Shown here in pieces: positions 798 through 36,231 of a stretch of 64,000 nt of DNA (the stretch's first letter is position 1; each line of letters opens with the position of its first letter). The notes under the pieces are model-generated. The model was not told where the DNA came from and did not search any database. It saw nothing but the letters and a program-made list of their open reading frames with translations. The position numbers were made by a program, and so were the translations under genes. This DNA comes from Candidatus Micrarchaeota archaeon (lineage in GTDB: Archaea; Micrarchaeota; Micrarchaeia; Norongarragalinales; Norongarragalinaceae). Where the stretch lies: positions 116,609-180,608 of the forward strand of contig JACPGT010000013.1 of NCBI GenBank assembly GCA_016188965.1, in the 5' to 3' direction.

Positions 798-1922
798 ATG
801 CGCATCCTCATGCTGAACTTGTTCTTTCCGCCGTACGAAGGCGGCACCGAGAAGCACGTGTACGAAGTCAGCCGACGGCTGGCGAAAAAGCACGACGTGA
901 CGGTGCTGACGGCGCGGCTGCCCGGCACCAAGAAAGAAGAAACCGTGGACGGCATCCGCGTGGTGCGCACCCCCGCATGGGTGCTCAAAGATTTGCCCGG
1001 CCCCCTGCCGCCGCCGGTGCCCTTGATGCCCGAACACGCCGCCGACGTCCGACGGCTCCTGAAACAACACGACGTCCTGCACGCCCATAACCGATTCTTT
1101 TACGGACTTGACTTGGTCAACTGGACGAAGAAAGCCAAAAAGCCGCTGTATTTGACGTTGCACAACGCACGCCCCGACGGCATCGACTTTTCCACCGATT
1201 TTTGGGGCCAGGCGTACGACGACACCATCGGAAAGACCATCATGAACGCCTGCACTGGTGTGCTCGGCGTTAGCCGAAACACGCTGGACGTGACGCTGCC
1301 CAAGAAGTTCAAAGGCAAGACCGCCGTGGCGTACAATGGCGTGGACGGCACCGTTTTCCGGCCCCAGGCAAGCGGCGTGAAAGACCGCCTCGGCATCGAA
1401 CGCATGGTGCTCTGCGTGGCGCGCTTCGTGCCCCAAAAAGGCCTCGAATACCTGCTGGACGCCATGGCCGACGTGGACGCCGATTTGGTGCTCGTCGGAC
1501 GCGGACCCTTGGAGAAAAAACTCAAAAACCAGGCCAAAAAGCTGAAAATCGAAAACCGCGTGCACGTATTGACGCAGAAGATTACAAACAAAGAACTCGC
1601 GACGTACTACGCCGCGGCCGACGTTTTTTGTTTGCCGTCGTTGTGGGAGCCGTTCGGCATGGTCGCCGCCGAAGCCCTCGCTTGCAGCGTACCCGTCGTC
1701 GCTACGCGCATCGGCGGATTGCCGGAAGTCGTCCGCGACCCAAAAGACGGATTCCTCGTTCCTCCCAAAAGCCCCCACGCGCTTTCCAAACGCATCCAAC
1801 ACCTGCTGGACGACCCCAAAAAAGCGCGGAAAATGGGCCAAAGCGGCCGCGCGCACGTCCTGAAGAAGTTCACGTGGGAGAAAACCGCGGAAGCGTACGA
1901 AAAAATGTACCGGAACCGCTGA
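798..1922 (+). CDS. Glycosyltransferase family 4 (GT-B, 'group 1')
   Basis: MRILMLNLFFPPYEGGTEKHVYE N-terminal domain and the classic C-terminal EPFGMVAAEALACSVPVVATRIGGLPEVV motif. ATG at 798 is chosen inside the longer ORF 696..1922. Confidence 0.85.
   Translation: MRILMLNLFFPPYEGGTEKHVYEVSRRLAKKHDVTVLTARLPGTKKEETVDGIRVVRTPAWVLKDLPGPLPPPVPLMPEHAADVRRLLKQHDVLHAHNRFFYGLDLVNWTKKAKKPLYLTLHNARPDGIDFSTDFWGQAYDDTIGKTIMNACTGVLGVSRNTLDVTLPKKFKGKTAVAYNGVDGTVFRPQASGVKDRLGIERMVLCVARFVPQKGLEYLLDAMADVDADLVLVGRGPLEKKLKNQAKKLKIENRVHVLTQKITNKELATYYAAADVFCLPSLWEPFGMVAAEALACSVPVVATRIGGLPEVVRDPKDGFLVPPKSPHALSKRIQHLLDDPKKARKMGQSGRAHVLKKFTWEKTAEAYEKMYRNR
1711..1922. repeat. Copy A of a repeated segment: the native 3' end of the GT4 gene (model for copies B and C)
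   Basis: ggattgccggaagtcgtcc (1718-1736) and gaagaagttcacgtgggagaaaaccgcggaagcgtacgaaaaaatgtaccgg (1863-1912) recur in degenerate form at 3196-3245 and 4904-4995. Confidence 0.6.
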
Positions 1923-1949
1923 AACGAAAAAAATGGCGAACGGTAAAAA

Positions 1950-3086
1950 TCAGGGCGTCCGAGGTCCGGCCAGCAGCCATTCTTCGACCGTCTTGCACTC
2001 CGCACCCCGAGGCAAAACGGCGTCCACCGGTCTGGCCGTCAAAAGAAGGCCGCGTTCCGCCATCTTCATTCCGGACTGCAGGCCCTCCAGCTCGCGTGAA
2101 GGAAGCGAATCCCCGGAGAATACTTGGACTGCAAGCCGTGCCTTGCCGGGAGCCGTCGCGACAAAATCACACTCTGCCGTCCCGCCCAGGTATGCCAGGT
2201 CATAACCGCGGCGCGCCAATTCGACCGCCACCACGTTTTCCAGACGGCGGCCGAAATCCGGGCTTTCCGAAACGCTCACCGACTTCTGCAAACCCGTATC
2301 CCAGGCATAATGCTTGGTATCGGCCACCAACCGCTCACGAGGAGAGCGGACTAACGGAGGCACTCGCAACACCAAAAACGCGTCGACCAGTCCGTCCACG
2401 TACGACCGCAGGGTCGGCTGGCTTATGCCCAAGGCATCCGCCGTCTTTTTCGACGAGATGACTTTGCCGCTTTCCGACAGCAACAAGATGGCCAGGTCCT
2501 TCAACGAGTTGACTTCCCGAATGCCCTTGCGCGCCGCCACGTCTCGCAAGACCGCCAACTCGAAATACAGCCGATGCAAGGTGGGCGCATCATTCGTGCG
2601 CAACACGCATTCCGGATAACCCCCCACGCGGAGGTATTGCTCGAACGAGTTCAGGCCCCACGCCCGGGCATTACGGAACGACAAGGGCAACACATGCTGG
2701 GGAACGGCGCGGCCGGCCAGGATGGTGCTGATTTCCTTGGATAGAAGCGACGCGCTGGAACCAGTCACCAACACGTGGTGTCTGCCATACTCGATTTCTT
2801 CCCGCACCAGGCGCTCCCAACCGGACAACGTCTGGATCTCATCCAGCACCAGCAAACCGCCTTTGGGTACGGCCTTAACCGCGTCAGCCAGTGCCGGGAC
2901 GGAAGACGGAGCGCCGGTCTTTTCCAAGTCAAAATACTGCCCCTGGCCCCCTTTAGACTGCCACGCATCCAACAGGCGCAACGCCAGCGTGCTTTTGCCC
3001 GCCCGTCGCGGCCCGATCAAAGCTAACGCTTCCTTCCAGGACAATTTCCCGAAAAGGCCCAATTCCTCCTCCCGCGGCAACGACAT
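1950..3086 (-). CDS. AAA+ ATPase with C-terminal DUF4143-like domain (COG1373-type)
   Basis: Walker A GPRRAGKSTLAL near the N-terminus and Walker B LLVLDEIQ. TATA-like TTTATTTATA lies about 25 nt upstream of the ATG in an AT-rich spacer (3087-3200). Confidence 0.8.
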   Translation of the reverse strand: MSLPREEELGLFGKLSWKEALALIGPRRAGKSTLALRLLDAWQSKGGQGQYFDLEKTGAPSSVPALADAVKAVPKGGLLVLDEIQTLSGWERLVREEIEYGRHHVLVTGSSASLLSKEISTILAGRAVPQHVLPLSFRNARAWGLNSFEQYLRVGGYPECVLRTNDAPTLHRLYFELAVLRDVAARKGIREVNSLKDLAILLLSESGKVISSKKTADALGISQPTLRSYVDGLVDAFLVLRVPPLVRSPRERLVADTKHYAWDTGLQKSVSVSESPDFGRRLENVVAVELARRGYDLAYLGGTAECDFVATAPGKARLAVQVFSGDSLPSRELEGLQSGMKMAERGLLLTARPVDAVLPRGAECKTVEEWLLAGPRTP

Positions 3087-3195
3087 AATGAAAACATGAT
3101 TTCAGCACATATAAATAACTATCGTATAAATAAAAAATACTTAAATACAGTGAAAGTAGAGGGAGGCATTCAAGTACACAGACAGTCGCCAGCAC

Positions 3196-3245
3196 GCTTG
3201 AAGAAGACCATGGGACAAGACGGCAAAAGCGTACGAAAAGATTTA
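3196..3245. repeat. Copy B: degenerate duplicate of the GT4 3' end
   Basis: tgaagaagaccatgggacaagacggcaaaagcgtacgaaaagat aligns to GT4 1863-1910 at about 75-80 % identity. It abuts the AbiEii stop codon. Confidence 0.55.
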
Positions 3246-4040
3246 TTCGTTTTGAAGCAAGGACAGGACGGACGCGACGACTTCGTCGGCGATCGGCCCG
3301 AATTCCGGGGGACTCTTCATCAAAACGCCCAATTCAGAACGCCATATCTTGGCTTTGGATTGGACGGCAGATGCGAATTCATCGCGAGCGAAACGAACAT
3401 CGTAATACTTCAATTTCTTGTTCACCGAATCCAAATCCGTCCGGACGCCTTTTCGCAGCAAAAACCATGCGTCGTAGACATCGCGCGCCTTGTCCCGTGT
3501 CAATAACGCCCGTATTTTTTCCGACAGAATCTCCGCGGAATCCAAGGCGTAAACGGTGTACGGCCGGATGTCGTCATACGGAGGCACGACCCTTCGCGCC
3601 TGCGCAGGCAAAAGCGGTTTCTCGCGAAGACTCAATTCCAACGTCAGATGCTGCATGCTTTTGGCCTCGCCGTTGAAAAGAGGGCCCGCTAGCTGGACTT
3701 TGAAGGATGCGGAACGCTCATCCGTGAACCTGCGGGATAAGCGCGGCTTGAAATCGTCAACGGTGGCCAACGCGTGTTCAACCCACTCAAGCGGGCTTCT
3801 ATCCGCAGAGACCGTGAAATCCAAATCCTCCGAAAAACGGTCCAGACCCATCGTTTTCTGCAAGCACGTGCCGCCTTTGAACACGAATTCCGTCGTGGTC
3901 TTTGAATAGACGGCCCGCAGCAACTGGTGCTGCAGGTAATCCTTCTCCGCTTGGTACAAGTGGAAGCCCAGCGTCCTTGCTTTTCGCGCCAACTCCTCCC
4001 GCGTAATCATTCCATCGCCTCGTTCACCAGGATGCGCCAC
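3243..4040 (-). CDS. AbiEii/AbiGii-family nucleotidyltransferase toxin (DUF1814)
   Basis: MITREELARKARTLGFHLYQAEKDYLQHQLL...FVFKGGTCLQKTMGLDRFSEDLDF is the hallmark N-terminus of AbiEii nucleotidyltransferases. Alternative start at 4010. It overlaps the upstream AbiEi gene. Confidence 0.8.
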   Translation of the reverse strand: MAHPGERGDGMITREELARKARTLGFHLYQAEKDYLQHQLLRAVYSKTTTEFVFKGGTCLQKTMGLDRFSEDLDFTVSADRSPLEWVEHALATVDDFKPRLSRRFTDERSASFKVQLAGPLFNGEAKSMQHLTLELSLREKPLLPAQARRVVPPYDDIRPYTVYALDSAEILSEKIRALLTRDKARDVYDAWFLLRKGVRTDLDSVNKKLKYYDVRFARDEFASAVQSKAKIWRSELGVLMKSPPEFGPIADEVVASVLSLLQNE

Positions 4041-4720
4041 GCCGCGTTCTTGCTGCCGCGGGAAGGCAAATTCGGATTCAACAAGCCATAGGACGGGGTC
4101 ACGAGCTTCCTCAAACCCGATGCATCCAGACCGGCCCGCTCCATCAGGAAACCCAGGCGCTTGGCCACGATCGGCGAATCGAACCGCTTTGCATACTCCA
4201 CCAATTTGGACGCGTCCAACTGCCCGACTGCGGACGCTGCCTCGGTAATGGGTAAATGCTCCGGTAGGTACAAACCGTCCAGCACCGCCTTTTCAGGCTC
4301 GGCCACCGTTACCGAGCCATACCGCTTGAACCCGAAATAGCGGAAAGCTGAAAGACGGATGAAAACAAAACGCGCGGATCCCACCGTCGCCGTCTTTTTC
4401 GGTTTTGGACAGGCGAGTTGGAGGGTGCGCGGCAATTGGGACGTCAAACCGTGGAATGACAACGCCGACAAGAACGACACGTACCCCACACCAAAGGCTT
4501 CAGCGATTTCGAACGGGGTGCGATCGGCGAGGACGAACTTGCCCCGCTCGACGCGGGCGATGGCTCCTCGTTTGATTGCTCGGGCCAGGAACAATTTGAC
4601 GTACTCCGGCTTTTTGCGCATCACGCGGGCGGCATCTGCAAGGGTGAACGACGTCAAGCCCAGTCCGGATAATTCCTTCATGAATTCGAACAACTTCACG
4701 ATTCCACACCCTACCTCCAC
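4007..4720 (-). CDS. AbiEi-family antitoxin/transcriptional regulator (type IV TA)
   Basis: 237 aa with an N-terminal wHTH-like segment (TSFTLADAARVMRKKPEYVKLFLARAIKRGAI), located immediately upstream of and overlapping AbiEii. Confidence 0.7.
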   Translation of the reverse strand: MEVGCGIVKLFEFMKELSGLGLTSFTLADAARVMRKKPEYVKLFLARAIKRGAIARVERGKFVLADRTPFEIAEAFGVGYVSFLSALSFHGLTSQLPRTLQLACPKPKKTATVGSARFVFIRLSAFRYFGFKRYGSVTVAEPEKAVLDGLYLPEHLPITEAASAVGQLDASKLVEYAKRFDSPIVAKRLGFLMERAGLDASGLRKLVTPSYGLLNPNLPSRGSKNAAWRILVNEAME

Positions 4721-4903
4721 ACCGGATTAGTTCATAAGTTAATAAAGATATCTTTTTTGATATCTTTAAGCATACATAAACACAAACTCGAAGTATTTTG
4801 TGAAACCACAACGGCCGAAAGCAGCGAAAACGAGAAGCCCGATTCGGGATTAGCAGGGTGAAAAACAAAAGAGCATTGTCGAAAAACCGGGACGGAATCC
4901 GAC

Positions 4904-4995
4904 AGCAAAATCAGCGGGTTGCCGGAAGTCGTCCAAAAAAAGCTCAAAAAAAAGGGGGGACAAGACGGAAAAAGCATACGAAAAAATGTATCATG
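4904..4995. repeat. Copy C: degenerate duplicate of the GT4 3' end with an internal deletion
   Basis: cgggttgccggaagtcgtcc matches 1714-1736 (22/25). ggacaagacggaaaaagcatacgaaaaaatgta matches copy B and the GT4 terminus. Confidence 0.55.
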
Positions 4996-5110
4996 CGGCA
5001 GCTTAGCTTCGCGGGTCGAGCCGCCGGCACCGCAACGGTCCGACAAAAACCGGCAGCCGACGGACAAAGCCCGGCGCGGGGTAGGCGTGCGGGCAAGCAC
5101 GTAAAGGCAC

Positions 5111-6715
5111 TCACTTCGCGAGGTGTTCGCCCATCAAGCGCATTTTTTCCGACGTCAGCGTCCAAGGCGAAACCTTGTTGCCCGGTTCAACCAAGGTATT
5201 TGGAACGTCGGAAAAGTTGAGGTATTTCCATCGCTCGGAAATGCGCGGGTCTTTGAAACGCTTGAGGGATTCTTCGAACGGTTTGGCGCCGCGCGCGGCA
5301 AAGCCATCCAGGCCTACGAACGGCACGTGGTGGCGTTTGAGCACGTCGGCATAATGGTTCAAACCGTCCACGCTTTGCAAAGAATTCGGATAAAACAAGC
5401 CGCCGGCGCCGGAAACGTACGGCTTGACGGTTTGCGCCAGTAGCGAAATCTCGTCGGCTTGCGCGGAAAAAAGCGCCGGGTCGTGCGGCAACAAAGGCGA
5501 GAACACGACCGAGACGTTCGCCTTGCCTCCGAACGCCGCGTGCACCGAGCGGAAAGCCTCGCGCACCGCGCCCAAGGGCTGGACCAAATCCTTATTCTCT
5601 TTCCAATAATACGGGGAACGCGGAGAATTCAAGCCGGGGGCGAATTGCAGCGTGGCGGGCCCGAATTCGGAGACGTCTTTGGCAATGGAATCCAGCGTGG
5701 CGTGGTACTTCGGGACGTTGTACAGGCCTTCCGTCGGCTCCAGCACGAAGTGCGGCCGCACGCCGGCCTGCACCATGGCACGCAAGTCGTCGCGCTCCTC
5801 CGGCGTGAAAAAACCGTTCCCGGGCTGGCGCATCCAGCGTTGTTGCGAGTCCTGGTTAAGGCGGATGAAGACGGAGTTGCCGGAAAAACGCACGCCGCTT
5901 TTGTGGCCCAAATCGGCCAACGCCTCGTGCGGCACGAAATGCACCGGCGTTTTGGGAACCGGCCCGACGACTTCCCGACCCTGCGATTGACGCCAGGACG
6001 CCAACGGGTACGCGCCGATGGCGACGCGTTGCGCGAACGAAGACGCCGCCTTGTCCGAAAAGGGCCCTTCCGAAAGGAAGCGGATCAGACGCATGAAAGG
6101 GTTGGTTCCGGCCAAACCCACGGCAGCGGTGGTGACGCCAGCGGCTCCCACGGCCGCGCCACCGAGGAACTTGCGGCGGGAAATCGGGCGCTCCCAGAAC
6201 GGCAGTTTCTCGACGGCAGGATCAACGACTTGGAAAGTATGGCGGCCAATCTTGAATTCCAGGTCGTGTTGCAGAACGATCCGATCTGATGGCGTCAACA
6301 AACGACTGCGGAACGCTTCGGGCTCCCGCACGTGCACATCGCCTTGACGCCTGAACAAAACATATTGACCCGAAGCCAAACGCTGGATAACGGCATGACG
6401 CAGTTTGACGTCACTGGATTTCGGCAAGTGAAAACGAGGGCCGGGACGGTGGCCCAAAGAAACGGCATCACCGGCCTTGAGCGACAAGGATTCTTCTTGA
6501 AATGCACCCGGACGTGGGCGACCGATTCGACGAATGATAAAATCCATATCAATCCTTTTCGCATAACGGAATAAATATAGCCCGCGCAGGCCCACAAGAA
6601 GACGGGAGACGGTGGACAAAAAATGCAGACCAAAAGAATTCACCTCGAACGTGTGAAATTGGCCATCCAAAGAAGAAAACCCGTATCTATATGCGTGGTG
6701 TGCGGTGCTAACCAA
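5111..6715 (-). CDS. FHA-domain protein with a single TM (twin-Arg-like SRRKFLGGAAVGAAG) and a large extracytoplasmic domain of unknown function; probable true start near 6547
   Basis: FHA-like stretch SSDVKLRHAVIQRLASGQYVLFRRQGDV...RIVLQHDLEFKIGRHTFQV, then a hydrophobic helix, then about 320 aa that could be hydrolase-like (unverified). Confidence 0.5.
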   Translation of the reverse strand: MVSTAHHAYRYGFSSLDGQFHTFEVNSFGLHFLSTVSRLLVGLRGLYLFRYAKRIDMDFIIRRIGRPRPGAFQEESLSLKAGDAVSLGHRPGPRFHLPKSSDVKLRHAVIQRLASGQYVLFRRQGDVHVREPEAFRSRLLTPSDRIVLQHDLEFKIGRHTFQVVDPAVEKLPFWERPISRRKFLGGAAVGAAGVTTAAVGLAGTNPFMRLIRFLSEGPFSDKAASSFAQRVAIGAYPLASWRQSQGREVVGPVPKTPVHFVPHEALADLGHKSGVRFSGNSVFIRLNQDSQQRWMRQPGNGFFTPEERDDLRAMVQAGVRPHFVLEPTEGLYNVPKYHATLDSIAKDVSEFGPATLQFAPGLNSPRSPYYWKENKDLVQPLGAVREAFRSVHAAFGGKANVSVVFSPLLPHDPALFSAQADEISLLAQTVKPYVSGAGGLFYPNSLQSVDGLNHYADVLKRHHVPFVGLDGFAARGAKPFEESLKRFKDPRISERWKYLNFSDVPNTLVEPGNKVSPWTLTSEKMRLMGEHLAK

Positions 6716-15138: not shown

Positions 15139-15723
15139 TCAGGAAGTCGGCGTGGATGGGCCGCATTTCGCCGAGTAGAGGCTGTAGTCGGCGAGGGAAA
15201 TGTCGTCCTTGAGGGATTCGGGGATGGAGGCGACGAAGTACAGCGAGTAATCGCCGCAGGGCACGAGGCCTTGCACCATGTGGAGGGTTTCGCCGAATTC
15301 GTCAGGCGCGATGCGGTACTGCAAGCGGAGGATGCGGCGTCCGTCGACGGTCTGGACGGTTTCGGAATCAGGCGGGACGGCCAATTCGTCAAACGCGATG
15401 TCCTTGAGTTCTTCCAGCGTATACGTGCCGTTCACGACTTGGAAGACGAACGTCTCGGATAGGCCGGAGGGGCCGGGGGCGAAAAAAAGGGCGGTTTTGC
15501 CGTCTTCGACTTCCAACGGGTAGCCGACGGGGTAGCGGATGGAGTAGCCGCGCACGGCGTCGGTGAAAGCCAAGCTGTGCGACTCGTACTCGTCTGAATA
15601 AGAGACGGTCGTGGAAGCCGGTGAAAGCAACTCGGATGACCACGGGCCCAAGTCGGTGAAGAAGTAAGCGAACAAAACGGCGGCGGCGAACACCAGGGGT
15701 AGTGCGAGCGAGCGCAGGTTCAT
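15139..15723 (-). CDS. Small secreted or membrane-anchored protein, co-transcribed with the 3349-aa gene (4-nt overlap)
   Basis: Signal/anchor MNLRSLALPLVFAAAVLFAYFF. Confidence 0.55.
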   Translation of the reverse strand: MNLRSLALPLVFAAAVLFAYFFTDLGPWSSELLSPASTTVSYSDEYESHSLAFTDAVRGYSIRYPVGYPLEVEDGKTALFFAPGPSGLSETFVFQVVNGTYTLEELKDIAFDELAVPPDSETVQTVDGRRILRLQYRIAPDEFGETLHMVQGLVPCGDYSLYFVASIPESLKDDISLADYSLYSAKCGPSTPTS

Positions 15724-18700
15724 GGTTTGGATCCTCCGGTCTGGCCTTTGGACAGCAGGCGGGTCAAGGCCTGGTCCGCGGCGGACAGTTTGGCGGCGCC
15801 TTCGGCGTCTTTTCCTGCCCGGAATGCGGCAATGGCCTGGTTGGCAAGGGCGATGATGGAGCGGCGGTCGGCATCGGACAGGGAATTCTTGAAACCGTCG
15901 GTGTTGACCTGGTCGATGAGGGCCTGCGCCGCTTGGATCTGCACTTGGCGGGCGGTGACTTTCGGATTCTCGGCCGCGGGCTGGTATTCCTTGAACCCGA
16001 CGGCGGGCAACGGCGCATAGTCGATGGACGAGCCGGGCGGAAGTTTCAACAGCTGGAGGTCAGCGGGCAGCAGGGGGGCTTCCTCCGGCAGGAAGATGGA
16101 GCCGATGAAGCGAGGGTCGACCAGCGCGTCGTCGTTGAATCCGACGACGAGGCCGTACGCTTGGGATTGGCCGTCGGGCCACTGCAACAAGCGGAAGCAG
16201 GTGCCCGAATTGCCGCAGAGCTTCGAGACGCTGATGACGTTGCCGGACTCGCATAAGCCGGACGCGCCCTTGATGCAGATGCTTTCGGCCGACGGCTTTC
16301 CTTTTTCGGTGTGGACGGCGATGACGTGACTGCCGCTGGAGTCGGCCGACACTTGGATCTGCACGGGCCGAAAATCGGTGTTGAACAGGAAGGCCGAAAG
16401 AAATGCCGCGAATGCGCTGGCGCCGCGGGCGAGGCGGGCGCGTCCGTCGGCGTTCAGTAGCTTGCGGGCCGCGGCTTGCTGGTCGGCCAGCGTTGCTTCC
16501 GCATCCGCCAACAACGACGGCGTCAACTTGGCGGGTTTTCCGTCGCGGTCGTACAGCTGCAAGTCGGCCAGCGCTTTGGCTTTCTGGGCAGGAGTCTTGG
16601 CGCCTTTAAGGAATCCGGTGGAGTCAAGACGGTTGGCACCGACCTCGGTAACCGACGCCACGCCTCCGAATGACGCGCCGATTTCGACGCCTTGGCGTCG
16701 GAACGCGTCGGAAAGATCGGTGAAGCTCAGCGCACCGTCTTCGAATCGTTTGACAATCGCCGCGCCGGTTTCGCCTGCGGCATTCGGGAATTTTCCGGTT
16801 TTGACGATGTCGTTGATGGCCGGCGCCAAACCAGTGCCCACGTCGGCAGATTGGATGAGTTGCAGGTAGCGGCTTTCCTTCTTCAATTGATCCAATAGGA
16901 CCTTGTTCTGCGCCGCGGTGCGTTTGCCTAAAGCGGTAACCACGTCAGCATCCGGAGCCGTATCCGGCAGGCTCAATTTTGTGCGCAAGAGTACGCCTGC
17001 TTCTTTTTCCAACGGCTCGAGGGCTTCGCCCATGAGGTTGGTCCGCATCGCGTTGCTGGAATGGATTAGAAACTTGGCGCCGCTGCCTTTTTCACTCGTG
17101 ACAATCAGGAATTTGGATTTCTCACCCGTAAGCTGTTCCAGCAGATACTCCTGGTTGGCCGCGGTCTGGAAGTAGTTCAGTCGGTCCAATTCAGCCATGC
17201 ATCCGGCGGGATTGCCACTGCAGCGGGTGAGCACACCCGCTGGAATCTTGTTCGTGGACCCTTTCAGTACTTCAAAAGTCTGGGGGCCGAATTCCGGCGA
17301 CTGCATCAGGGCCGAAAAAGTGGAGCGAAGGCGCGCCGTCAACGCATCGCCTTGCAAGCTGGCGGGGCCGGCGAGGCCCAGGTTTTCGACGAAGAACTGG
17401 CGGGCGGCAACGGGGTTTTCCTTGATTAGGTTGGTGGAAACCATGGCGTAACCTTGCTTGACTTTCGCCGGGTCCTTGCTGCCGATGAGGGCCGCGGCTG
17501 CCTTCTTGTCATCCGGCGACAGAAGCGCCATGCCGTGGAACAACGCATTGCTGAACGCATTTTCAGGTTTTCCGTTTCCGGCGTCATAGAACGCGCGGAC
17601 GGCTTGTTCCGTGGTGCGGCGGCCTTGCGCGCCGAAGAAGCCTTGGGCGGCAAAGGAGCTGGTCGCGGCTTGTATGTTCTTGCGATACGACTCGCCGGGC
17701 ATGAGGTTGATCATGTAGGAGCGGGCCGCGACTCCGCCGCTGTAGACTTTGTTGGGGGATAAGCCTTGACGCAGGACTAAAGTGATGGGAACAACTGGCG
17801 GCGTGGCGGTGACGTCGGGGCCGGCCAGATTCTCCAGGTACGCGACCGTCGCGCCGCCGACGATGCTCTGCAGGGCGAACGAGCCGACGGCGGAGCGCAT
17901 GGCGGTTCCTGTCAGGGTCGAACCGAGGGTCGTCGTGGACGTGGCGCGGAGCAACTGGGCTTCGGCGGCCAGGGGCTTCCAACCGCCGAAGAACGGATTG
18001 GCCATTTCGACCATGCCGGCTAATACCGACGAAGTGCAGGCTTCCAGGGCGCGGCAGGACAAGACGCTTCGGCCTTGGAAATATTCGGCCACGGCGCCGG
18101 CGCCGCAGCCGGATGCGGCGGTGATGAGGCGGTAGTTGGTGATGAAGGAGCGGACTCCGACGAGAAAGGAGGATCCGCCGGTGGCCGTGACGGAGGCGGG
18201 GTTGGCCGCTGCGATGGCTTGGAGGAGCGCCAGGCCCGTGACGGTGAGGCCCAACTTCGTCAGGACGGGTCCTCCGGTGCGCCAGCAGAAGTTCGCGTTC
18301 TCGTACGGAATGGCAGGACAGGGCTTGTCTTCGAATCCGGGTTTGTTGCAGTACTTGATTTTCGCGTCTTTGGCGTTGGCGCCGAACGCGGAGGCGTACG
18401 TCATCTTGACGGCGAGGGCGTCCTTGTCGTTGGCGTCCGAGCCGTACGTACCTAGCACGCCTTGGCGGAGGCGGCCCACGCTTTCCAGCATGGCGGCGAC
18501 TTTGCCTTTGTCGCCGGAGTTGACGGCGGATTGCGCCAAGCCGCCGACGGCGTTGAGCGTGTTCCAGGAAAAGACTTGCTTGACGGCGCCGATGACGCTG
18601 CCGGTGCCCAACTGGTTGCCGGCGTACGACACGGGCGTGTCGGCCGTCAGAAGCGCCGCGTTGGCCAAGTTGACGGGGCATTCCTGGAGTTTTTCGACGT

Positions 18701-21700
18701 TCAGCTCGACTTGCATGTGGCCCATCCATTCGGACACTGAACTTCCTTGGATGCCGCAGGCGGGGTCAAGGCGGGCGGTGAGCCGGTAGATGCCGCAGCC
18801 GTTGAACAGGATGCGGCCGGAGCCGGAGGATTGGACGACGACTTGGTTGATTTCGGGGAAGAACTGCGTCTTGATTTGTGATTCCCACTGCAGGGACTGC
18901 GCTAAGGTGTCATCGCCGGACAAGGCGCCTTCCGTCAATTGCAGGACCGTGGATTTCTGGAATTGCTTTCCGCTGTCGAGGGACTGGCAGAACGCCGAAA
19001 GGCCGGAAAGTTCGGTGGCTTGGCCGTTGTTGTTGATGCGTTGGTTGACCAGTTCGCGGAACGTGCTGGCGAACGAATAGACGGCGCGTTCGGCCTGGCC
19101 GCTGGTGCAGAAGAATTTCTTGCAAGTGCGGAAGTCCAGAAGGTTCTGGTACGCCTGCGTGCGGGCTTGCGCTTCGGTCTTGCGTTCCGCTTCCTTCTGT
19201 GCTGCGGACTTTTCCGGTTCCGGCGGATTCGCCGCGGCGGCTTCGGCCGCGGAAGGCGTCAGAGCCGGCGGCGCGTTGGCGGACGGCGCGTCGGCAAAGG
19301 CAAGCGTTTCGTAGGACGCGAGGCCCATCTGGCCTTTCTGCTTGGGCGTCGCCGTGCGGGGGTCGAAGAAAGGCACGGCTTTTCCGATGGGCGAGTACGG
19401 ATAGAGCGAAGAGGAGGGTCCGGGATTCCAGACGTGGACGTTGATCGTCTTGGTGGGGTTGAACGAATCGCCCAGAAAGTCGATGATGTAAGGGCCTTGT
19501 TTTCCTTGGCTTCCGGGGTTGGACACGCAGGAAAGCAGCATCACGTCGGCCGGCTTGATTTCCGCCCCGGTCTGCAGCTGGAAGGTCGTCTTGGACCCGC
19601 CTTCCACGCGCGTGCACGTCATGAGTCCGGCGCCTGCGCCCGAGATGGACTTGACGCGGACGGGCTTTTCCTCGTTGTTGACGATGGCGAAGAACAATTC
19701 GTGCCCGGCGCTCTTGAAGTACAGCTTGTCCGCGCCGGTGCCGCCGGCGATGCCGGCCAGTTCCGCCGTGTCGTAGTTGACCGATACGGCGTTCAAGTCG
19801 ACGAACTGCTTTTGATCCTGGTAGGCCTGGCAGTCCGACTCCTTGGCGTCGAAAATCATCTTGACGGGCAGGCGGTGTTTTTCGGATTCGGAAACGGGCT
19901 CGCCGTTGACGTCGTTGAACTTGAACGCGTACCGGCCTTCCATGGACGGCGGCACTTTGCTTGCCGAAATGCATTTGTCTTTCCAAAGCACGTCCGGCGG
20001 TAGGCTGAATTCAAGGGTGAAGGCGCGGCAGTTGGACTGGCCTTCCACGGACGGCTCGACCGCGAGGCGTTGGCGCTTGCCGTAGGCGCTGGGTTCCGAG
20101 AAGTAGGCGCGTTCGGAAGGCACCTTGGAATCCGTCGAATCGGCTCCGGCGATGGCTTGGAAGATGGGCTTGTGTTCAGCGGACACGGCTTGGGCCGGCT
20201 CGGACGTGACGGCGTCCAGGATGATGCTCTGTTTGCCGCTGTTGAACAGGCAGATTTCCTTCTTCTGGGTGAACAATTCCGGATTCTTGTTGCTGAACGT
20301 GATTTCCAGCACGCCCATCTTGCCGTCCTTGTCCAAAGCGGCAAAAACGTCTTCCGCCGTGATGGACACGTCGAGGCGGCCGGATCCTTTCTCGCATACG
20401 GGCAGGAAGGAAAGCGACGAGCCCTTGGGCATCAGAAGGCCGGAACCGGAGTACTGGGGCGGCATGGCGGCCTGGATCTTCTGGCCGTTTGGATGAAGCG
20501 TGATTTTCTTGGCGCTGCCCAACTGCGTCAACGAGCCGGATTTCGAGCCGAACGAGATCGGCGTCAGGACGCCCAGGTCCACGTCGGCCTGGTTTTCCTT
20601 GAAACTGGCCAGGACGCGCTGGGGCATGGATACCACCGATTTTTCGGCGAAGGACACCTTGGCTTCCTTCAGCGTGTCGGCGACGTCCTTTCCGGCAGCG
20701 TCCTTGAGGCACGCCGTCAGCTCGACGGCATCCGACGTGCGGATGCTTTTTTCCTCGGCGTCCGACGCGTCGCCTACGGTGAACTCGCTGTCGGTCGAAA
20801 AAACAATTTTCTTGACGGCCGGGCTATGGAACACTTCGGCCGTCCCCGAGCCGCCGCTGACGGAGAATACGAGGCGGGCCGAATCGTCGCAGGCCGGCAG
20901 GATGGCTTCGTACCCTTTCGCCGTCTTCTGTACCGCCGTTCCGGTCGGCAGGGTGAAAGCCACGGAGTCCGGAGGCGCGTACGTGAAGGAACACTTGGCC
21001 ACTGAAGCCGGGTCGTAGGGAATGCGGGCGTGGGCGCCTTTGAGGTAAGTCAAGGCGTTGTCGCGGGCTACGCGCAGCACGTTCTGGCTTAGTTGTTTGG
21101 ACACGCTAAGCGTCCAGGATGCCTCGACCACGGCGTCGTCGGAAAGCTTCAGCGCGTTGCGTCCGTCCTGCGTCTTGAATGCCTTGGGCGAAGGGCCATG
21201 CACGCTCAAGGCGTAGGACAGGGGCATGCGCAGTTCGAACGCCTCCTCGATGGGCAAATCCTTGACGGCACTGACGCGCGCACGGGAGACGAACAAGGAC
21301 GTGCCGGACGGCAGCATGAGCGTGCCTTTCTGAACGTCTAAAGCGGCGCCGTCGCCGAAAGCTAGGCGTTCGCCTCCGGGCAACTGGATGGCCTTGAGGT
21401 TCTGCAAGTGGGCATCGGACTGCGGTTTGGAAAGGTAAGACAACGAATTGGCGGCGTTGGGCGTCTTGGGCTGCACATTCTTGCGTTCGACCGTGCCGGG
21501 CAACAAGTCGAACTGCGCGTCGGTAGGAAGCTTGATCTCGACGGAGTCCGGCGGCAGCAGGTTCTGCAACGCATCGTAGTTGAAGGGAATACGGCGGAAC
21601 GTGACCGGCTGCAAAGGCGGCACGCGCACGCCGGCGGCGGAGAGCCGGGCGTTGCCCTGCGCCTGCGGCGTTTGCACGCCGGGCGGCAGGATGATCTGCG

Positions 21701-24700
21701 CGTTGTCCAGCGTGACGAGCATCTGTCCGGACGCGCCGAAGGGCTGGTAGTCGGCATCGGACGGCAGGTTGAGCGTCACGCCCAACGGGAACGAAATGGT
21801 CCAGCCGCCTTCCGGCAAGGCCTGCACGTAGCGGCGGTCCAGGACGAACGCCGTGCCTTGCGGCACCTGGGCGTCGATGGGTGTGACGGACGCGCCGGTG
21901 CCGAACCACAGCAATTCACGCGTAGGCAACAAGACCGACGTGCTGCCGTCCGGGTTGGACTTGCTGCGGGCGTTGGCCAGAAATTCCATGCGTACGTCCA
22001 CGGGCAACGTGAGGCGGTAGCCGTTGGGAGGCTGGCAGGCCAAGCTGGCGGTGGAGACGTCGAGGTTGACCGAAGCCGTCTTCTTCGAGGACAGGCCCTG
22101 GAACGAACCGTATACGGTCAGAGCGCCTTTTTTCTGCAGGTCTTCGCTGAAGCAGTCGATTTCACGCGGCAGGAAGGCCTTAATGGTGAACGCGTCCTGC
22201 GAGCCGGGCGGCAGAGTGAGCGACGCCGGCTGGATGGAAAGGCCCAGGGTCTGCTCGACGTTGAACACCATCGGGTACGCGCCCGTATTGGACACCGTCA
22301 TCTGGACGGACTGCGTCTTGTCCTTCGGCGGCTCCAGGTTGAACTGCAGCGCGTCCGGCGAGACGGACCACGACTCGTCGATGGCCGTCTGCGAAAACAC
22401 CGCGTCAACGGTGAACGGCACGTCGAACGACTCGGAGTAGCCTTTGCCGGACACGCGGACGTGCACCGTGCCCCGCACTTTTTCCTTCAATTGGCCCGCT
22501 TTCTTGGCGATTTCCAGGACGGATTCCTTGATGGCGGCCTTCAGGTCGAACGACGCCGTGCCGCTTGCGGCCAAGGACAGCGACGTCGTCGAAAGCGTCA
22601 CGTCGGTAATCTGGCCGCCGGCGTCCAGCGAAACGCTGATGGAGGCACGCAGCTTGTCGGCAAGCCGGTTGGACAATTGGACGGACGCCGAAGCGGGCTC
22701 CTTGGAATCCACGCTGATGACCAACGCTGGAGGCGTGATGTCAACGGCCTGCTCCGGCGGTTGCACGGCAATCGAGCCGGAAAACGGCCGGTAGCCGTCC
22801 TTCGTCACTTCGAACGAAATAGGCGCAAGCGAGTCAGGCTCAATCTCGTCCACGACGTAGACGCCGGACGCGTTGCCCGATTCGACGGCCTCCCGATCAT
22901 CGACGCTCACGCGGGCCCCCGTCACGGACTGGCCCAGCGTGTCCTTGACGGTGAACACCAATTTCGACACGCTCAAGGCCTCGACGCGGTCCGGACGCAC
23001 CGATACGACCAGCCCGGGCGTGCCCGGAGAAAAGACGCTCACGAAGGCCTCCGTCTCGAAGAGAACCGATCGGCCGTCCGAGACGTTGATCGACAACGGC
23101 GCGTCGGCTGACAGGCGGACGGCTTGGAACGAGAACTCGGCCGAACTGCGACCAGCGTCGGCCCGGATGCGGGCCGCCGAAGGCGTCAGGGATGCGACGC
23201 TGGAATTGCTGCGGCCGGAAAGAAGCACGATGGCCGGCGTGCCGGACGACACGCCAAGGACGCCGTCGGATGAGAGGCCGAAGACGTTGACGACCAACGA
23301 CGCCTTCTGTCCCCACGGCAGGTCGAGGCGCGAGCTCTTGCGTCCCTTGTACGAAAAATGCCACTGCACGCACACGTTTTCGGTGCACGTGCCGGAAAAC
23401 GAGACGGACAGGCGGGCGGATTCGGTCAGGCCTTCCGCCGGCGAACGCAGCGTCTCGACGGGAGTGAAGAAAGCCGAACGGTGGGAAAGCACGACGGTGC
23501 CGCTGGAAGGCGTCTTGAAACGCAAGCTAAACTGGCGCGAGCCGTTGAACGGCCCGTACTCGAACAGCACGCCGGTCGCTTCCTGGACTTCGACGGCCGC
23601 CGGCGCAAGCACCGTCACGAAGCCGGACAACTCGGGGTTGCGCATCGACTTGAACGAAAAGCCGCCCACTTTGTTGAACACGACCGAACGATTCTGGCCG
23701 TCGGGAATCGTGACGCTCTGACCGTCGTCGAAAACGATGAAATGCGTCACGTTGTCCTGGTTGACGAACCAGACGGACCCGCCTTGCGTCACTTCGAAAG
23801 AGGGCTGGGAAAAGCCATCCGGACCGATGTCGACGGGCGGCACGTCGGGCAACGCTCGGTTCTCCGCCGAGCCTTTCTTGGAAACCCGCGCGCCGACGCC
23901 TTGGCCACCCAGCACGGCCGCGCCTTCGAGGGCCACTTCACCTTCGGCTTTCGAGAACGAAACGCCGGGCGACACGATGGCGTAACGCGCCTCGTACTCG
24001 CTCAACGGCGAGAGGGAATGGACCTTGCGGCCGGAAACGTCGAAAACGCCGTCGAAACGCAGCCTCACGTTCTGCGCCACCTGGCTGGACGTCAGTTCGA
24101 ACGTCAACGGCGGCATGCCGGCATACACGGGCAGAGGGGAGGCATCCATCGACGAGTAGCCGTCCGCGCTGACGTGAAACTGCGCGTCCTCGCTTTCAAG
24201 GACGGCGATGGAACAGGCGCCTTTGGAATCCGTCTTGCACGACGCGTTGGACCACGAGACTTTGGCATTGGCAAGGCCGTTGCGCGAAAAATGGTCCACG
24301 ACGGACACTTTGACGCCCACCGACACGGGCGGGAACTGCAAGTCGACCTGCGTCTCGTTGGAGTCTGCATCGAGCGCGACGGAGCCGCTGGAAACCGAAC
24401 GCACGCCGTCGGATGCCACCACTTGGATGACGCGGAGCGGCACGTCGTCGAACACCTGCACGCCGTCCTCGCCCGTCAGCCGCACCGGCAAGCCCAACGG
24501 CTTGGACTTTTCGTCCAGAAGAAAGACGGACACGCGCGACGCGTCAGTGCCTCGGCGGTCCGTCACGTGCACGCGGACGCGGGTCGATTGGTTGTCGGAA
24601 TCTTCCAGCACGACCAACTGGTCCTTCTGGATGGACGGCACGTACTTCGGCAGGAAGCCGGCCTTGTAGACGGAGACGGCCAACGACGACGAATGCGACA

Positions 24701-29942: not shown

Positions 29943-32900
29943 CTAACTCGATGAAGCTATGCATCGGCAAATTACCTTGCCGTCACTACCAGGAGTCTTC
30001 CCAGGAGGCGTTAGTAAATCCAAATTGGGACCGCATTTTCCGTTTCCGGATTGGCTGCGGTCGGACGCCATACTGCACGTGAACGACATATCGGCCTTCT
30101 GTCCGCGGCATCCTCCAATAGACTCGCTGCTGCACGTGGAATCGTCTCTTGTCGCTTTGGGGGCATGTGACAATTCTTGGGCCTGAGTGCTGACGGGCGC
30201 GTTGCTTTGGGTGGTGGTCGCGCCTTTGGGCACCCAGTTTTGGATTTCGTATTTCTTGCCGTCGGCGGAGAGTTTGAGGTAGGGAAATCCGCGGTACTCT
30301 TCCTTCAAAGTCTGCGAGCCTTTCGGCCGGTTGGCGGATGGCGCGTCGGATGCTTGCGTCCAGAGGCGCGGGTCGTATTGGGCAGGGGTGGAGGACATGC
30401 GGTCGAAGCGTTCGAATTCGACGTTGTCGCCCGTCTGGCTTGCGCCGGTCAAGTCGGCTTTGATTTGGTAGACTTTGATGCCGCCGGAGTTTCCGGCTTC
30501 TTTGACGGGCAGGGCGATGACGGGTTGCAAGTCGGCGATGACGGGTTTGCGGTTGGAGTAGACGCCGCGGCTGTAGCCGTACCATTGCTGTTGTTGCTGC
30601 ATGAACGGGTTGAAGTATCCGGTGTTCAGTTGGCCTTGGTATTGGAAGGCGTTGAGGATGTCCGAGTGGCAGCCGGCTTGTTGCCATCCTTGTCCGAAGG
30701 CGTCGCCGAAGCTTTGCTGGATGGTCGGGTCGTTCACGTAGCCTGGGTAGTAGCCTTGGCCTGGGTAGAAGTTGGACTGGTACGGGTTGTAAGGCACTTG
30801 TCCGCCGCCGAGCGCGGGGTTGACGGCCGCGCCGCCGCTGATTCCGCCACCGTAAGGATTGGCGCCGCCGTAGGGGCTGCCGTAGGGGTTGTAGCCGCCG
30901 CTGAATCCTTGCTGGTCGTAGTATCCCGGCGTGTTCTGGTTGTAGCCGTAGATGGGCGCGATGCCGCTCTGTTGGCATTGTTGGCGCGTCTGGGCCAAGG
31001 GATCCTGTCCTTGCCGGATGCAGGCTTCGTATTGTGAACGCAGGGCCATGTATTCGCGCAAGGCGTCCTGCATGGCTTGCTGGTATAAGCGTTGGTACGC
31101 CTGTCCGTCGCCGCCGTTGAGCCCGAGGGGGTCTTCGTAGGCCAGCGTGTCGACGGAGGCGAGGTATTGGACGGCAAAAGCGTTCAGCGCGGTCTTGACG
31201 GTTTCAAGATAAGCCGTGGCTTGTTCCGGCGTGCAGTAGTTGGCGCCGGAGCATGAATACGCGCCTTCGCTTGCGCCGACGTTGCCGACGATGTCGTATT
31301 GGTCAAGTCCGACGGGTGCGGGCTGGATCGTCACTTGCAGGGGCAATTCGGTGGCGGTCGTGGCCGTGGCGCCGGATTTCAAGGTGAGTTTGTCGTCTTT
31401 CTTGAGCGTCAGCGTGGTGGCGCGGGCGTCGGTGCCGGCTACGACGAAGTTGGTCAGGCCGGCGCCGTTGAGGATGAACTGGACTTGTTTGGATTGGATG
31501 TTGTTGGCAAAAACGGCGGGTTCCTCGAAGCTTAATCCGGTTTTTCCACGCAGGGTGATGGCGCCGGAGGGCATGGCGATGAAGGCCAAGTGATCCGCTT
31601 GGCTTTGCGCGGTTTGGACGGCGAAGTGGACGATGTAGTCGCGGGCGTCGAGGTTGACGCCGGTGCCGAATGGCTTGAGTTTGACTTGGAAGCCGTCTTT
31701 TCCTTTGCCGATGGGTTCGACCTTGATTTGGCCGTCTTGTCCCGCGGTGTATTGGACGCATTGGGCGCGGGGACGGAAGGTCACGACGAAGGTGCGCGTC
31801 TGGCGGGTGAGGAGGCCGACTTGGGACTGCAGGTTCTGTTTGATGTCGGTGAAGATGTCGTTGACGCCGGAGAACTTGCCGACTTCCTGGATTTCGTAGC
31901 AGGGATTGTTGTACTGCGTCAGGATGTCGACGGTGTTGAACAGCTGGTTCTCGACGCTGAAGGCCAAGGCGTTGTACGGCACGATGGGGAAGATGGGCTT
32001 GGTGCAGGAAATGCCGCTGGCGGACGGCGTGCATCCGTCGCCGGCTTTCTTGAGCGCCACGCCGCGTTGCGTCGCCGTCAGTTGGGTGGGTGCTGACGCG
32101 GCGGTGACTTGCTGGGGATAGTTGCCCAGCGTTTGGGCGCCGAGGTAGTAGCCGAGGTATTTGGAGAAGATGTTCTGGAAGTTGAAGTTAGGCGCTTGGC
32201 AGACTTGCGACACGGGGATGCAGCATTGCTGGCCTTCCGCGCATACGGCGGCGGTGGCGGAGGGAGTAGGCGTGGGCGTGCCGTAGGGGTTGGGTGGATT
32301 TTCCGAGAAGTAGGGCGGAAGCCCCGTGTTGTACGGCGATGGGCCGTATGGGTAGCCGGGGACGTTGGAGTATGGCGTGTAGCCGGTGGGCCACGTGGGC
32401 GAGGATGGCTGGTACGTGGACGGGATGAAGCCGTTGGGACAGGATTGGCCCAGCGCGACGCATTGGCCGCCGCGGGCGGCGCAGTCCGCACCGGGTACGG
32501 GCGTGGGCGAAGGCGAGGCGTTGCCCGGCTGGGGCGAAACGGTTGGCGTGGGGCTGGCAGACACGCCGCATTGTGAGGATAGGACGGCAATCGAGCTGCC
32601 GAGTGCTTGTCCGTTGACGGTTTCGGCGTTGAACGCCAGGAAGCATTCCCCGTCCGTCGTGGGCGTGAGGAGGATCCGGGTGTCTTTTCCGGGCTTGACG
32701 CGGAAGTTGGCGGACGACGAGCCGGACGCGCCGTGTACCGGCGGGGTAGTCGTGGCCGTGGTGCTCAAGACGCGCATGGAGGCACAGGCCGTTCCGGCGA
32801 ACGAGGCGGCGACTTTCAGTTCGGCGTTGACGCGCGAGGACACGGTCAGGGTGGTGGGGTTCTTGCAGTCGAGTTCGACGTTGGAAATGTCGGAGCCAAA

Positions 32901-36020: not shown

Positions 36021-36048
36021 AGGTCCACCAGAGAATAGTTTCGCACTC

Positions 36049-36058
36049 TTATATAAAC
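36049..36058 (-). promoter_or_regulatory. Canonical archaeal TATA box (TTTATATAAG on the reverse strand), ~27 nt upstream of the TSS and ~6 nt leader to ATG 36020
   Basis: seen in sequence. Confidence 0.6.
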
Positions 36059-36231
36059 GTAAACAATTGCCCGCGAGGGAAAAAGGACGCGGGTTTAAGA
36101 AAAAAACAGGAGAAAGAAGCCCGGGTAAATGAAGCAAAAACGCGGGCCGCCGGCCCATCCGCGTCGCGTCACCGGCCAGCACCCGGGCAAACGCTGAAAA
36201 ACCAAGGACCGAATCAGAAGTCCGAACCGTC

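Follow-up and report, generated by a model that had tools for sequence, protein, structure and literature searches.

An insertion hotspot at the 3′ end of a glycosyltransferase gene carries cassettes of predicted defence genes in Micrarchaeota

How does an archaeon with a tiny genome, dependent upon a host, acquire and exchange its defence genes? To our knowledge almost nothing is known about this in the DPANN archaea. The question is raised in a specific form by a locus within a 64 kb stretch of the genome of a Candidatus Micrarchaeota, a DPANN archaeon (the whole stretch is called the window in what follows). A gene for a GT4 glycosyltransferase is followed there by two cassettes of predicted defence genes, and after each cassette the 3′ end of the GT4 gene is found again in part. 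Why should the end of this gene be present three times, and what does its repetition say about the arrival of the cassettes? An initial annotation of the sequence took the arrangement for the footprint of serial site-specific integration. Comparison with related uncultured lineages indicates that the last ~230 bp of this one GT4 gene form a sequence-defined insertion hotspot, found in empty, single-cassette and multi-cassette states, and that at least one of the cassettes (AbiE) has moved between lineages.

Copies of the GT4 3′ end in the window

The array comprises the following features, given by position and strand.

798-1922, + strand: GT4 glycosyltransferase gene, the integration target (Pfam Glycos_transf_1, 2e-47; Glyco_transf_4, 6e-23)
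1690-1910, + strand: repeat copy A, i.e. segment H of the working GT4 gene, from approximately ATRIGGLPEVV to AYEKMY (delimited by the H alignments)
1911-1949, + strand: cassette-specific tail RNR of GT4 (stop codon 1920-1922) and a 27-nt spacer to the stop codon of the ATPase gene; the left junction of cassette 1
1950-3086, − strand: AAA_14 + DUF4143 (COG1373-type) ATPase, the cargo of cassette 1 (Pfam 5e-23 and 9e-18)
3087-3190, − strand: AT-rich promoter spacer of cassette 1
3191-3255, + strand: relic B, consisting of the last ~57 nt of a GT4 3′ end with the tail YSF and a stop codon (3253-3255)
3243-4010, − strand: predicted AbiEii nucleotidyltransferase toxin, cargo of cassette 2 (Pfam AbiEii, 1.6e-30)
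4007-4720, − strand: predicted AbiEi antitoxin/regulator, cargo of cassette 2 (Pfam AbiEi_1, 1.6e-6)
4744-4767, no strand assigned: inverted repeat AAAGATATC-N6-GATATCTTT with perfect arms, in the AbiEi promoter
4800-4909, no strand assigned: non-coding right arm of the AbiE cassette, 80-90% identical to that of the relative L103 by sliding identity
4910-5006, + strand: relic C, from a GT4 3′ end that has lost two internal segments (stop codon 5004-5006)

The GT4 3′ region was compared with the sequences at 3150-3260 and 4880-5010 by local alignment, and the scores were judged against 1000 dinucleotide shuffles. Copy B aligns to 1853-1910 with a score of 46 (shuffle mean 16, standard deviation 2.2, z = 13.5). 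For copy C against the GT4 3′ region z = 7.7, and for copies B and C against each other z = 13.8; none of the 1000 shuffles reached the score of any of the three alignments. The recurrence of the GT4 3′ end in two further copies, proposed in the initial annotation, is therefore real, with their limits corrected to 3191-3255 and 4910-5006.

The working GT4 end reads ..IGGLPEVV...PKKARKMG...KKFTWEKTAEAYEKMYRNR followed by the stop codon, and copy B in the GT4 frame reads WDKTAKAYEKIYSF and a stop. Copy C retains a piece from further upstream, as had been noted initially: its 5′ piece of 25 nt (4910-4934) is 92% identical to 1710-1734 and reads SGLPEVV. This is followed by a remnant of the PKKA codons at 4933-4951 (79% identical to 1815-1833) and by a 3′ piece, homologous at 4957-4991, that reads DKTEKAYEKMYHAAA and a stop over 4957-5006. 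B and C are therefore pieces of the GT4 C-terminal coding sequence from which segments have been lost by deletion. They had been described as degenerate; they are instead diverged alleles with internal or 5′ deletions, and their state is not one of degeneration by many substitutions.

Copies B and C have in common the 26-mer GACAAGACGGMAAAAGCRTACGAAAA, which occurs exactly twice in the 64 kb and in none of 100 shuffles. They are 89% identical over 35 nt, compared with 77% for each of them against A, so that the greater likeness of B to C was correctly seen at the outset. It arises because B and C are close to the family consensus (WDKTA...), while A has a derived tail. The latter, WEKTAEAY..MY, is common to the window GT4 and L072 only, and is not found in closer GT4 relatives.

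The site behind GT4 in related lineages

Orthologues of the window GT4 with 76-85% amino acid identity were located on contigs, and these were then compared with the window; labels such as L103 denote contigs or loci of the relatives. In every lineage examined the GT4 gene is full length with its frame intact, and every relic has the same orientation as GT4 and lies directly after a cassette. In L070, L071 and L081 a large chromosomal gene begins 66 nt after GT4 and there is no relic, i.e. the site is empty. There is likewise no relic in L066 and L067, the two cassette-free relatives closest to the window, where GT4 is followed by a 604-aa transglutaminase-core gene that is missing from the window (L066 11194-13008, L067 11199-13013), and then by the orthologue of the 534-aa gene that borders the array in the window.

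The remaining lineages carry cassettes. In L103, L104 and L102 GT4 is followed by the AbiE cassette of the window alone and by a full-length relic of 75 open codons. In L103 this relic reads IDELPEYVRDKKDGFLVPPK...KKFTWEKTAEAYERIYRKNDSID and a stop, and it sits at the position orthologous to relic C. In L072-L075, L079 and L080 GT4 is followed by AbiEi-like and AbiEii genes on the + strand and then by a 171-nt relic with an open frame, KDKFLLPPKDPSALAEKIRFLLDNPRTAKKMGTAGRLHVMKKFTWDQTAQAYESIYQHATK and a stop; the AbiE pair of L072-L075 differs from that of the window and lies on the other strand. L076 has the two cassettes of the window in the opposite order, with a relic after each: GT4 is followed by AbiEii/AbiEi, a relic with an open frame (..KKFTWNKTSEAYEKFYSGPN and a stop), the ATPase gene, a 205-nt relic with one in-frame stop, and another AAA_14 gene. 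Lastly, the contigs L099 and L095, both from one sample, have ends with an overlap of 23 nt and, taken together, give the order GT4, small open reading frame (ORF), ATPase (86% amino acid identity to that of the window), relic and two more ATPases, which match PADLOC PDC-S27 and PDC-S01; the relic reads LPAEI..GKHGFLV, a stop, and then PKSPHALARKIQYLRDNPKKARQ.

Because the relatives show the site empty, with other cassettes, or with the cassettes reordered, the site behind GT4 is a genuine insertion hotspot. The variation of intervening gene content that would be expected under the initial annotation is seen in each of these forms (empty, a different AbiE, reversed order, and AbiE alone). The genes 3′ of the array differ in every lineage examined, so that synteny, too, breaks at the GT4 3′ end. 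Wider searches did not extend the set. A scan of metagenome contigs gave no lineages beyond those already found by protein look-up, and the closest species representative found by a GT4 scan of genome contigs (L001, 51% identity) is not syntenic. A search for relics of the GT4 3′ end in ~75 more distant GT4 loci gave only full-length paralogues of 21-47% identity, and hence no hint in those loci that the arrangement exists beyond this clade.

Alignment of 8 functional GT4 ends and 7 relics delimits the shared segment, H. Its 5′ limit lies ~20 nt upstream of TTGCCGGAAGTC, an invariant sequence with the codons ..IGGLPEV, and its 3′ limit directly behind the TAY codon of AYEKxY. Further upstream than the 5′ edge of the relics, homology to GT4 is no better than that of shuffled sequences. 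Four of the relics (win_C, L076_C, L095_R and L103_R) begin at one common point, although the cassettes before them differ and their alleles are not of one type (CSN-IGG or ATR-IGG). Note that TTGCCGGAAGTC, near this common edge, is also under constraint from the protein (GGLPEV), and that gene-conversion patches blur the point of crossover.

After the tyrosine codon that ends H the tail and stop differ between all copies (11 of 11 in one alignment). The tails, each terminated by the stop codon, are RNR, SC, SD, PE, TTQKSRFEK, EKA, SGPN, CRSIR, QHATK, SF, HAAA, SS and RKNDSID. The tail matches the cassette that lies on its right. The AbiE cassette is preceded by ..EK(I/V)YS(F/S/C) and a stop in each of win_B, L103_A and L076_A, and the stop of the tail overlaps the stop codon of AbiEii on the opposite strand. 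In L103 (KIYSS) and L076 (KVYSC) this is the working end of GT4; in the window it is relic B, whose stop codon overlaps that of AbiEii in the same way. Since the working ends of L103 and L076 have the like tail and the like overlap, relic B is the former working GT4 end of the AbiE cassette, with its 5′ part deleted. At the other side of a cassette, relic L072_B ends in a tail like that of GT4 at the empty site of L070; tail excepted, L072_A and L072_B are tied in their nearness to the empty-site allele L070_A. From the linkage of tail and cassette, and from the likeness of the L072_B and L070 tails, it follows that the end of the left copy comes from the incoming DNA, and that the right copy keeps the resident end and its flank. 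Such an arrangement results from a single crossover that joins the gene to DNA bearing its own H.

How old are the differences between the copies? Between relic and working end within a genome the proportion of synonymous differences (pS) is 0.4-0.7 and that of non-synonymous differences (pN) is ~0.2, with a ratio of non-synonymous to synonymous divergence (dN/dS) of 0.12-0.35. Three relics (L076_B, L072_B and L103_R) keep open frames over 57-75 codons. The low dN/dS and the open frames imply that most of the divergence arose while both copies served as GT4 ends, in separate lineages. The relics are therefore alleles that had already diverged when they were joined, and not decayed local duplicates. 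The initial annotation had spoken of a partial duplication of the target. This is right in that the repeats derive from GT4, and imprecise in that the copies were already diverged alleles, as are icd and icdC of Escherichia coli.

Two further origins of the copies were considered and ruled out: a target duplication of the transposition type by the relic dN/dS together with the allelic divergence, and a local duplication followed by neutral decay by the same ratio together with the open frames.

Synonymous divergence in H (67 codons) was compared with that in the body of the gene for the closest pairs. It is 0.69 in H and 0.46 in the body for the window and L076, 0.58 and 0.39 for L072 and L103, and 0.74 and 0.51 for L070 and L103; we estimate these differences at ~2.5-3 standard errors. 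In the cassette-free pair L066 and L067 H is not more diverged than the body (0.36 vs 0.47). The excess of divergence in H, in pairs in which at least one genome bears a cassette, is in line with foreign replacement of this segment. Within single genomes, H is patchy. L103_A and L103_R (659-875 and 2528-2745 on the reverse complement) are 80%, 92% and 70% identical along H, the 92% lying in the middle 110 nt and the ends being at 70-80%; similar blocks of near-identity are found between the working end and the relic of L072 (10949-11122 and 12485-12655). Such patches are indicative of gene conversion between the direct repeats of one genome.

The AbiE cassette provides evidence of movement. 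The window from 3211 to 4934 is 86.2% identical to L103 over 1726 nt with no notable gaps, compared with 76.7% for the adjacent GT4 gene. The zone of high identity runs from ~40 nt before the stop of relic B to the 5′ piece of relic C, and spans both AbiE genes, their promoter with the inverted repeat, and the right arm at 4800-4909. Synonymous divergence (dS) for the genes of the array is as follows.

Window and L103: GT4 0.97; AbiEii 0.32; AbiEi 0.44; ATPase not present
Window and L076: GT4 0.83; AbiEii 2.58; AbiEi 2.2; ATPase 1.28
Window and L095/L099: GT4 1.16; AbiEii and AbiEi not present; ATPase 1.20
L076 and L095/L099: GT4 1.39; AbiEii and AbiEi not present; ATPase 1.38

The common ancestor of the AbiE genes of the window and L103 is thus more recent than that of their hosts, and the AbiE cassette has therefore moved horizontally as a minimal 1.7-kb unit bounded by GT4-derived repeats. 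L076 acquired its AbiE cassette in a separate event, for the AbiE dS to the window is 2.2-2.6, compared with 0.83 for GT4. For the ATPase cassette, homology to L095 starts at 1949, and the spacer at 3087-3190 aligns to L076 and L095 only as far as ~3117-3124.

Origin of the array

We consider it likely that the array was built by serial single-crossover (Campbell-type) insertions of cassettes that carry a surrogate GT4 3′ end. Each incoming DNA would have consisted of its cargo gene or genes, a promoter, its own last ~230 bp of GT4 (H, spanning ..IGGLPEV.. to ..AYEKxY), and a tail and stop peculiar to it. Recombination within H would leave GT4 intact and give it a new 3′ terminus, while the previous 3′ end would be displaced to the far side of the cassette, there to persist as a relic. 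In the window, A would be the working end, B the earlier working end belonging to the AbiE cassette, and C either the older resident end or a copy of H brought by the AbiE donor. B and C would later have lost segments by deletion.

We favour two stages. In the first, elements bearing a recombinase would have founded the site, with crossover near the fixed 5′ edge of H, in the manner of e14 and phage 21 at icd; in the second, cassettes lacking an integrase would have spread and been reshuffled. A dedicated recombinase is favoured by the common 5′ edge of H after different cassettes, by the parallel with e14, and by archaeal 3′-end elements that re-use sites in tandem. For the later spread we give equal weight to a recombinase supplied in trans and to plain homologous recombination between the GT4-derived repeats, each falling somewhat short of an even chance. 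Note that the insertion product is shown by the sequences, and that the recombination enzyme is inferred. Of the initial proposal, serial integration into the 3′ end of a protein gene is upheld by the polymorphism of the site. The term site-specific is not, as there is no integrase in any cassette of five lineages and homologous recombination over ~230 bp could give the same product.

Several observations weigh against this reading. No tyrosine or serine recombinase was found in or next to any cassette in five lineages (~8 cassettes), and none is named in the precomputed Pfam lists of the related loci; the cassette ORFs encode without exception AbiEi, AbiEii or ATPases of the AAA type. The remark in the initial annotation that no integrase remains in the window holds for the cassette ORFs and for ten other mid-size ORFs, five of which have no Pfam match of any kind. 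Viral contigs scanned for the GT4 3′ motif, for a motif pair spanning H, for the ATPase and for AbiEii yielded no free or viral element with a GT4 3′ fragment. In L100 (GT4 62% identical) a DUF4143 ATPase gene lies behind GT4 with no detectable relic, and L076_B and L072_B have no recognizable 5′ 30 nt of H. For the ATPase cassette no linkage of tail to cassette is visible between the window and L076, and the spacers of 10-27 nt in the window (copy A) and at L076_B have no recognizable similarity. The dS of the ATPase is roughly congruent with that of GT4 in all three pairs, and this cassette may be old and mostly vertically inherited. Finally, the mapping of crossovers, and the assignment of donor and resident by pairwise identity, were too noisy to be of use, as was the phylogeny of H, because gene conversion has blurred the history.

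The alternative that survives best is a sub-variant of the Campbell-type reading and differs from it only in the enzyme step. Here no dedicated recombinase would ever have been needed for the spread: an H-cassette-H fragment, or an excised circle, would insert at the GT4 3′ end of another cell by host recombination. By topology, either a linear H-cassette-H molecule or a circle can insert into a single H, and at ~230 bp H far exceeds typical archaeal attachment (att) cores, whose median is 17-45 bp (PMC6563490). The near-identity patches show recombination or gene conversion acting on the repeats within one genome, the AbiE cassette has moved between lineages as a minimal repeat-bounded unit, and the absence of integrases from the ~8 cassettes is in its favour. 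Against it, H differs by 24-30% between lineages with perfect runs of only ~15 nt, making it a poor substrate for recombination. The origin of the first duplication is left unexplained, and the common 5′ edge after different cassettes is hard to explain unless there was one founding event. We regard this model as possible, if on balance doubtful. Taken further, the cassettes would be self-sufficient mobile units free of any recombinase, with H as a portable arm, making up an integron-like defence array into which host recombination inserts, excises and reorders them. We think this rather unlikely; were it true, the repeated foreign replacement of the C-terminal 70 codons of GT4 would be a by-product.

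DPANN genomes are small and streamlined, and toxin-antitoxin genes, as addiction modules, resist loss. The cassettes might then never have been mobile, and could be what is left of ordinary large elements that had integrated, whether proviruses or plasmids, by integrases of their own, each independently trimmed in place to its defence or addiction genes. Cis-mobilizable elements (CIMEs) arise in this way, and are most decayed furthest from the target gene (PMC7563491). In our data, however, the boundaries of the AbiE cassette are equal in the window and L103 despite a dS of 0.3-0.4 against 0.97 for GT4, and the cassette was therefore already minimal when it moved. Moreover, the spacers of 100-220 bp contain no pseudogene debris, and in no examined lineage is there a larger element at the site. 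We consider decay in place improbable.

Could the relics instead be decayed tandem paralogues of the whole GT4 gene, within a generic, variable defence island whose content is exchanged through double crossovers in its conserved flanks? A second GT4 gene does lie nearby in some relatives (at ~4-6 kb in L066 and L067, and directly upstream in L076), and synteny around the gene is unstable. Yet four relics begin at one internal position with nothing resembling GT4 upstream, and all relics are co-oriented and directly follow cassettes. The working gene has a different tail beside each different cassette, and the relics resemble this GT4 and not the paralogue, to whose C-terminus their amino acid identity is 33-41%. 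This explanation is very improbable. That the source is a metagenome-assembled genome, in which repeats can misjoin contigs, makes a chimera conceivable, but three Logan assemblies, made independently from different runs, match the window arrangement at 100% identity over the junctions, and a like architecture is seen in four further lineages that come from other studies, while z scores of 7.7-13.8 with no shuffle in 1000 reaching the alignment scores speak against chance similarity, so that both may be dismissed as having a negligible probability.

If serial single-crossover insertion did involve a recombinase, the site defines the att site of an undescribed family of archaeal integrative elements. 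If it did not, there is a simple and general route by which streamlined genomes could build defence arrays. The C-terminal ~70 codons of a housekeeping-type enzyme have moreover repeatedly been swapped for foreign alleles, and the H segment provides a handle with which to search for further cassettes, or for a parent element, in Micrarchaeota.

Cargo, surroundings and known systems

As had been proposed, the cargo of the window is an AAA/DUF4143 ATPase and an AbiEi/AbiEii pair on the strand opposite to GT4, with strong matches in both Pfam and PADLOC; NCBIfam gave nothing specific for the cargo proteins. The ATPase matches PADLOC PDC-S01 (1.2e-70) and has orthologues of 82-86% amino acid identity in L076 and L095, making it a candidate defence gene. 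DUF4143 (COG1373) is listed in a survey of the PD-(D/E)XK superfamily (PMC3424549). The AT-rich character of the spacer preceding this gene was also rightly recognized in the initial annotation (31.7% GC, against 59.2% for the window). A 66%-identical homologue of the ATPase is found elsewhere than at this GT4, in L096/L097 (8001-9143), within a sugar-nucleotide/glycosyltransferase cluster of another Micrarchaeia genome, where it adjoins several small unannotated ORFs.

AbiEii (PADLOC 3.6e-70) and AbiEi (PADLOC AbiEi, 5e-45) are 86% and 90% identical in amino acid sequence to their counterparts in L103. In AbiE systems the genes for AbiEi (a winged helix-turn-helix and a C-terminal domain) and for the nucleotidyltransferase AbiEii are neighbours in one operon; in the window the AbiEi gene likewise adjoins that of AbiEii, with an overlap of 4 nt (4007-4010). 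The true start of AbiEi is probably a GTG that gives a protein of 230 aa, as called in L103. The pair is predicted to be an abortive-infection type IV toxin-antitoxin system, and the cargo would be of defence type. The cassettes seen in the relatives all come from the same few defence-associated families.

The inverted repeat upstream of AbiEi, AAAGATATC-TTTTTT-GATATCTTT, is conserved in L103, and L076 has two copies of it (2900-2930 and 2977-3003). We take it for a probable operator, by which AbiEi would repress its own operon. We note also a motif (T/C)AGCAGGGT(G/T)(A/G)A in the right arms of AbiE cassettes, at 4852-4866 in the window, 3058-3072 in L076 and ~2461-2475 on the reverse complement of L103. 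The same motif is found at 4838-4852 of L076, after the last relic and just before the next ATPase gene. It is possible that this is a promoter element or a site in the recombination arm.

The array is bordered by the following genes in the window.

Within 1-678, − strand: DUF3368 PIN-like gene, cut by the start of the window so that only its 3′ part is present, which pairs with the UPF0175 gene
358-678, − strand: UPF0175 antitoxin-like gene (Pfam UPF0175, 8e-14)
5111-6715, − strand: chromosomal gene of 534 aa, the right flank of the array (no Pfam family)

The UPF0175/DUF3368 pair lies directly 5′ of GT4 in the window, L072 (9059-9854) and L099 (1768-2560); the orthologous pair was identified as DUF3368 + UPF0175 in L062, L067 and L072. 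In L067 (5317-6151) it is 4 kb from GT4, next to another GT4 gene and set apart by three genes missing from the window, and it is absent from L070 and L076. The pair is thus a variable neighbour outside the array, and the 5′ side of GT4 is variable too. On the right, the 534-aa gene had been thought to encode an FHA protein, for which no match was found even at E <= 1; the sole hint as to its nature is a weak stretch resembling a twin-arginine signal at residues 178-200. Its orthologues are the 564-585 aa gene of L066 and L067 (65% amino acid identity) and the gene at 19368-21128 in L072.

Further along the window there are giant ORFs, all on the − strand, at 15720-25769 (3349 aa), 29943-36284 (2113 aa) and 36792-42206 (1804 aa), together with several of 900-1000 aa; relatives carry genes of 1472-3242 aa beside the GT4 locus. 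A tRNA of 114 nt at 50954-51067 on the + strand (Rfam, 57.7 bits) was not detected when ARAGORN was run in bacterial mode; an intron is the presumed reason, which fits an archaeal source. The window's GT4, ATPase and AbiEii proteins each match, at 100% identity, a protein of a Candidatus Micrarchaeota archaeon on an NCBI contig of 197 kb.

How does the array compare with known systems? A limited search of the literature found no description of a comparable one. It is already known that elements integrate at the 3′ end of a gene and bring a surrogate for it, that they form tandem arrays, and that derivatives without an integrase exist. We did not find described the combination of a Micrarchaeota host with a GT4 target, the consistent absence of a recombinase, mobile units of one or two genes, or an allelic repeat of ~230 bp.

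The closest parallel is the insertion of e14 and phage 21 into icd of E. coli. There, as here, DNA is inserted in the 3′ part of a protein gene and supplies a surrogate 3′ end that keeps the gene intact, while the original end comes to lie on the far side, in the same orientation, as the relic icdC. e14 supplies the last 165 bp of icd, and icd and icdC are 92.7% identical in nucleotide and 96% in amino acid sequence, the differences being mostly synonymous, as they are in GT4. The features of this class that are present in the array are direct repeats derived from the target, end codons supplied by the insert, an empty site and an allelic displaced copy; the feature that is absent is an integrase of its own. 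By contrast with the inserts at GT4, which are of 1.3-1.7 kb with one or two genes, are stacked, and have no recombinase that we could find, e14 is a 15-kb prophage with intE and xisE. The segment shared at GT4 is also longer (~230 bp) and much more diverged (70-85% identity), and the host is an archaeon.

Site-specific accretion arrays of streptococcal elements of the integrative and conjugative (ICEs) and of the integrative and mobilizable (IMEs) kinds, for example at the 3′ end of fda or of a tRNA-Lys gene, contain CIMEs and microCIMEs that are integrase-less, flanked by att repeats originating in the target gene's 3′ end and arranged in tandem, like the cassettes here (PMC7563491). Their order and content vary among strains and their cargo includes phage resistance, which is again similar (PMC7563491). 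CIMEs are, however, deletion derivatives of ICEs and IMEs and are found alongside functional mobilizing elements; no parent or helper was found for the GT4 cassettes, which have no conjugation genes, and whose repeats are ~230-bp gene segments in place of short att cores.

Integrated elements of archaea also target the 3′ ends of protein genes, supply a stop codon and re-use sites in tandem (PMC6563490). Those elements are multigene, have a tyrosine recombinase or a casposase, and have att sites or target-site duplications of 8-69 bp, none of which is a feature of the GT4 array. Casposons have terminal inverted repeats and Cas1, whereas here there are no terminal inverted repeats and no Cas1 or transposase gene, and the repeats are ~230 bp in length and allelic.

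The AbiE type IV toxin-antitoxin and PDC-S01 families match the cargo only, and not the array. Integrons resemble the array in that small cassettes are stacked in one direction with a recurring site-like repeat, and in that their order varies between relatives. They differ in their IntI, attI and attC-type palindromes, none of which is found here, and there are no inverted repeats at the cassette ends. The GT4 cassettes have their own promoters and lie in either orientation, and the repeat that separates them is a fragment of the neighbouring host gene.

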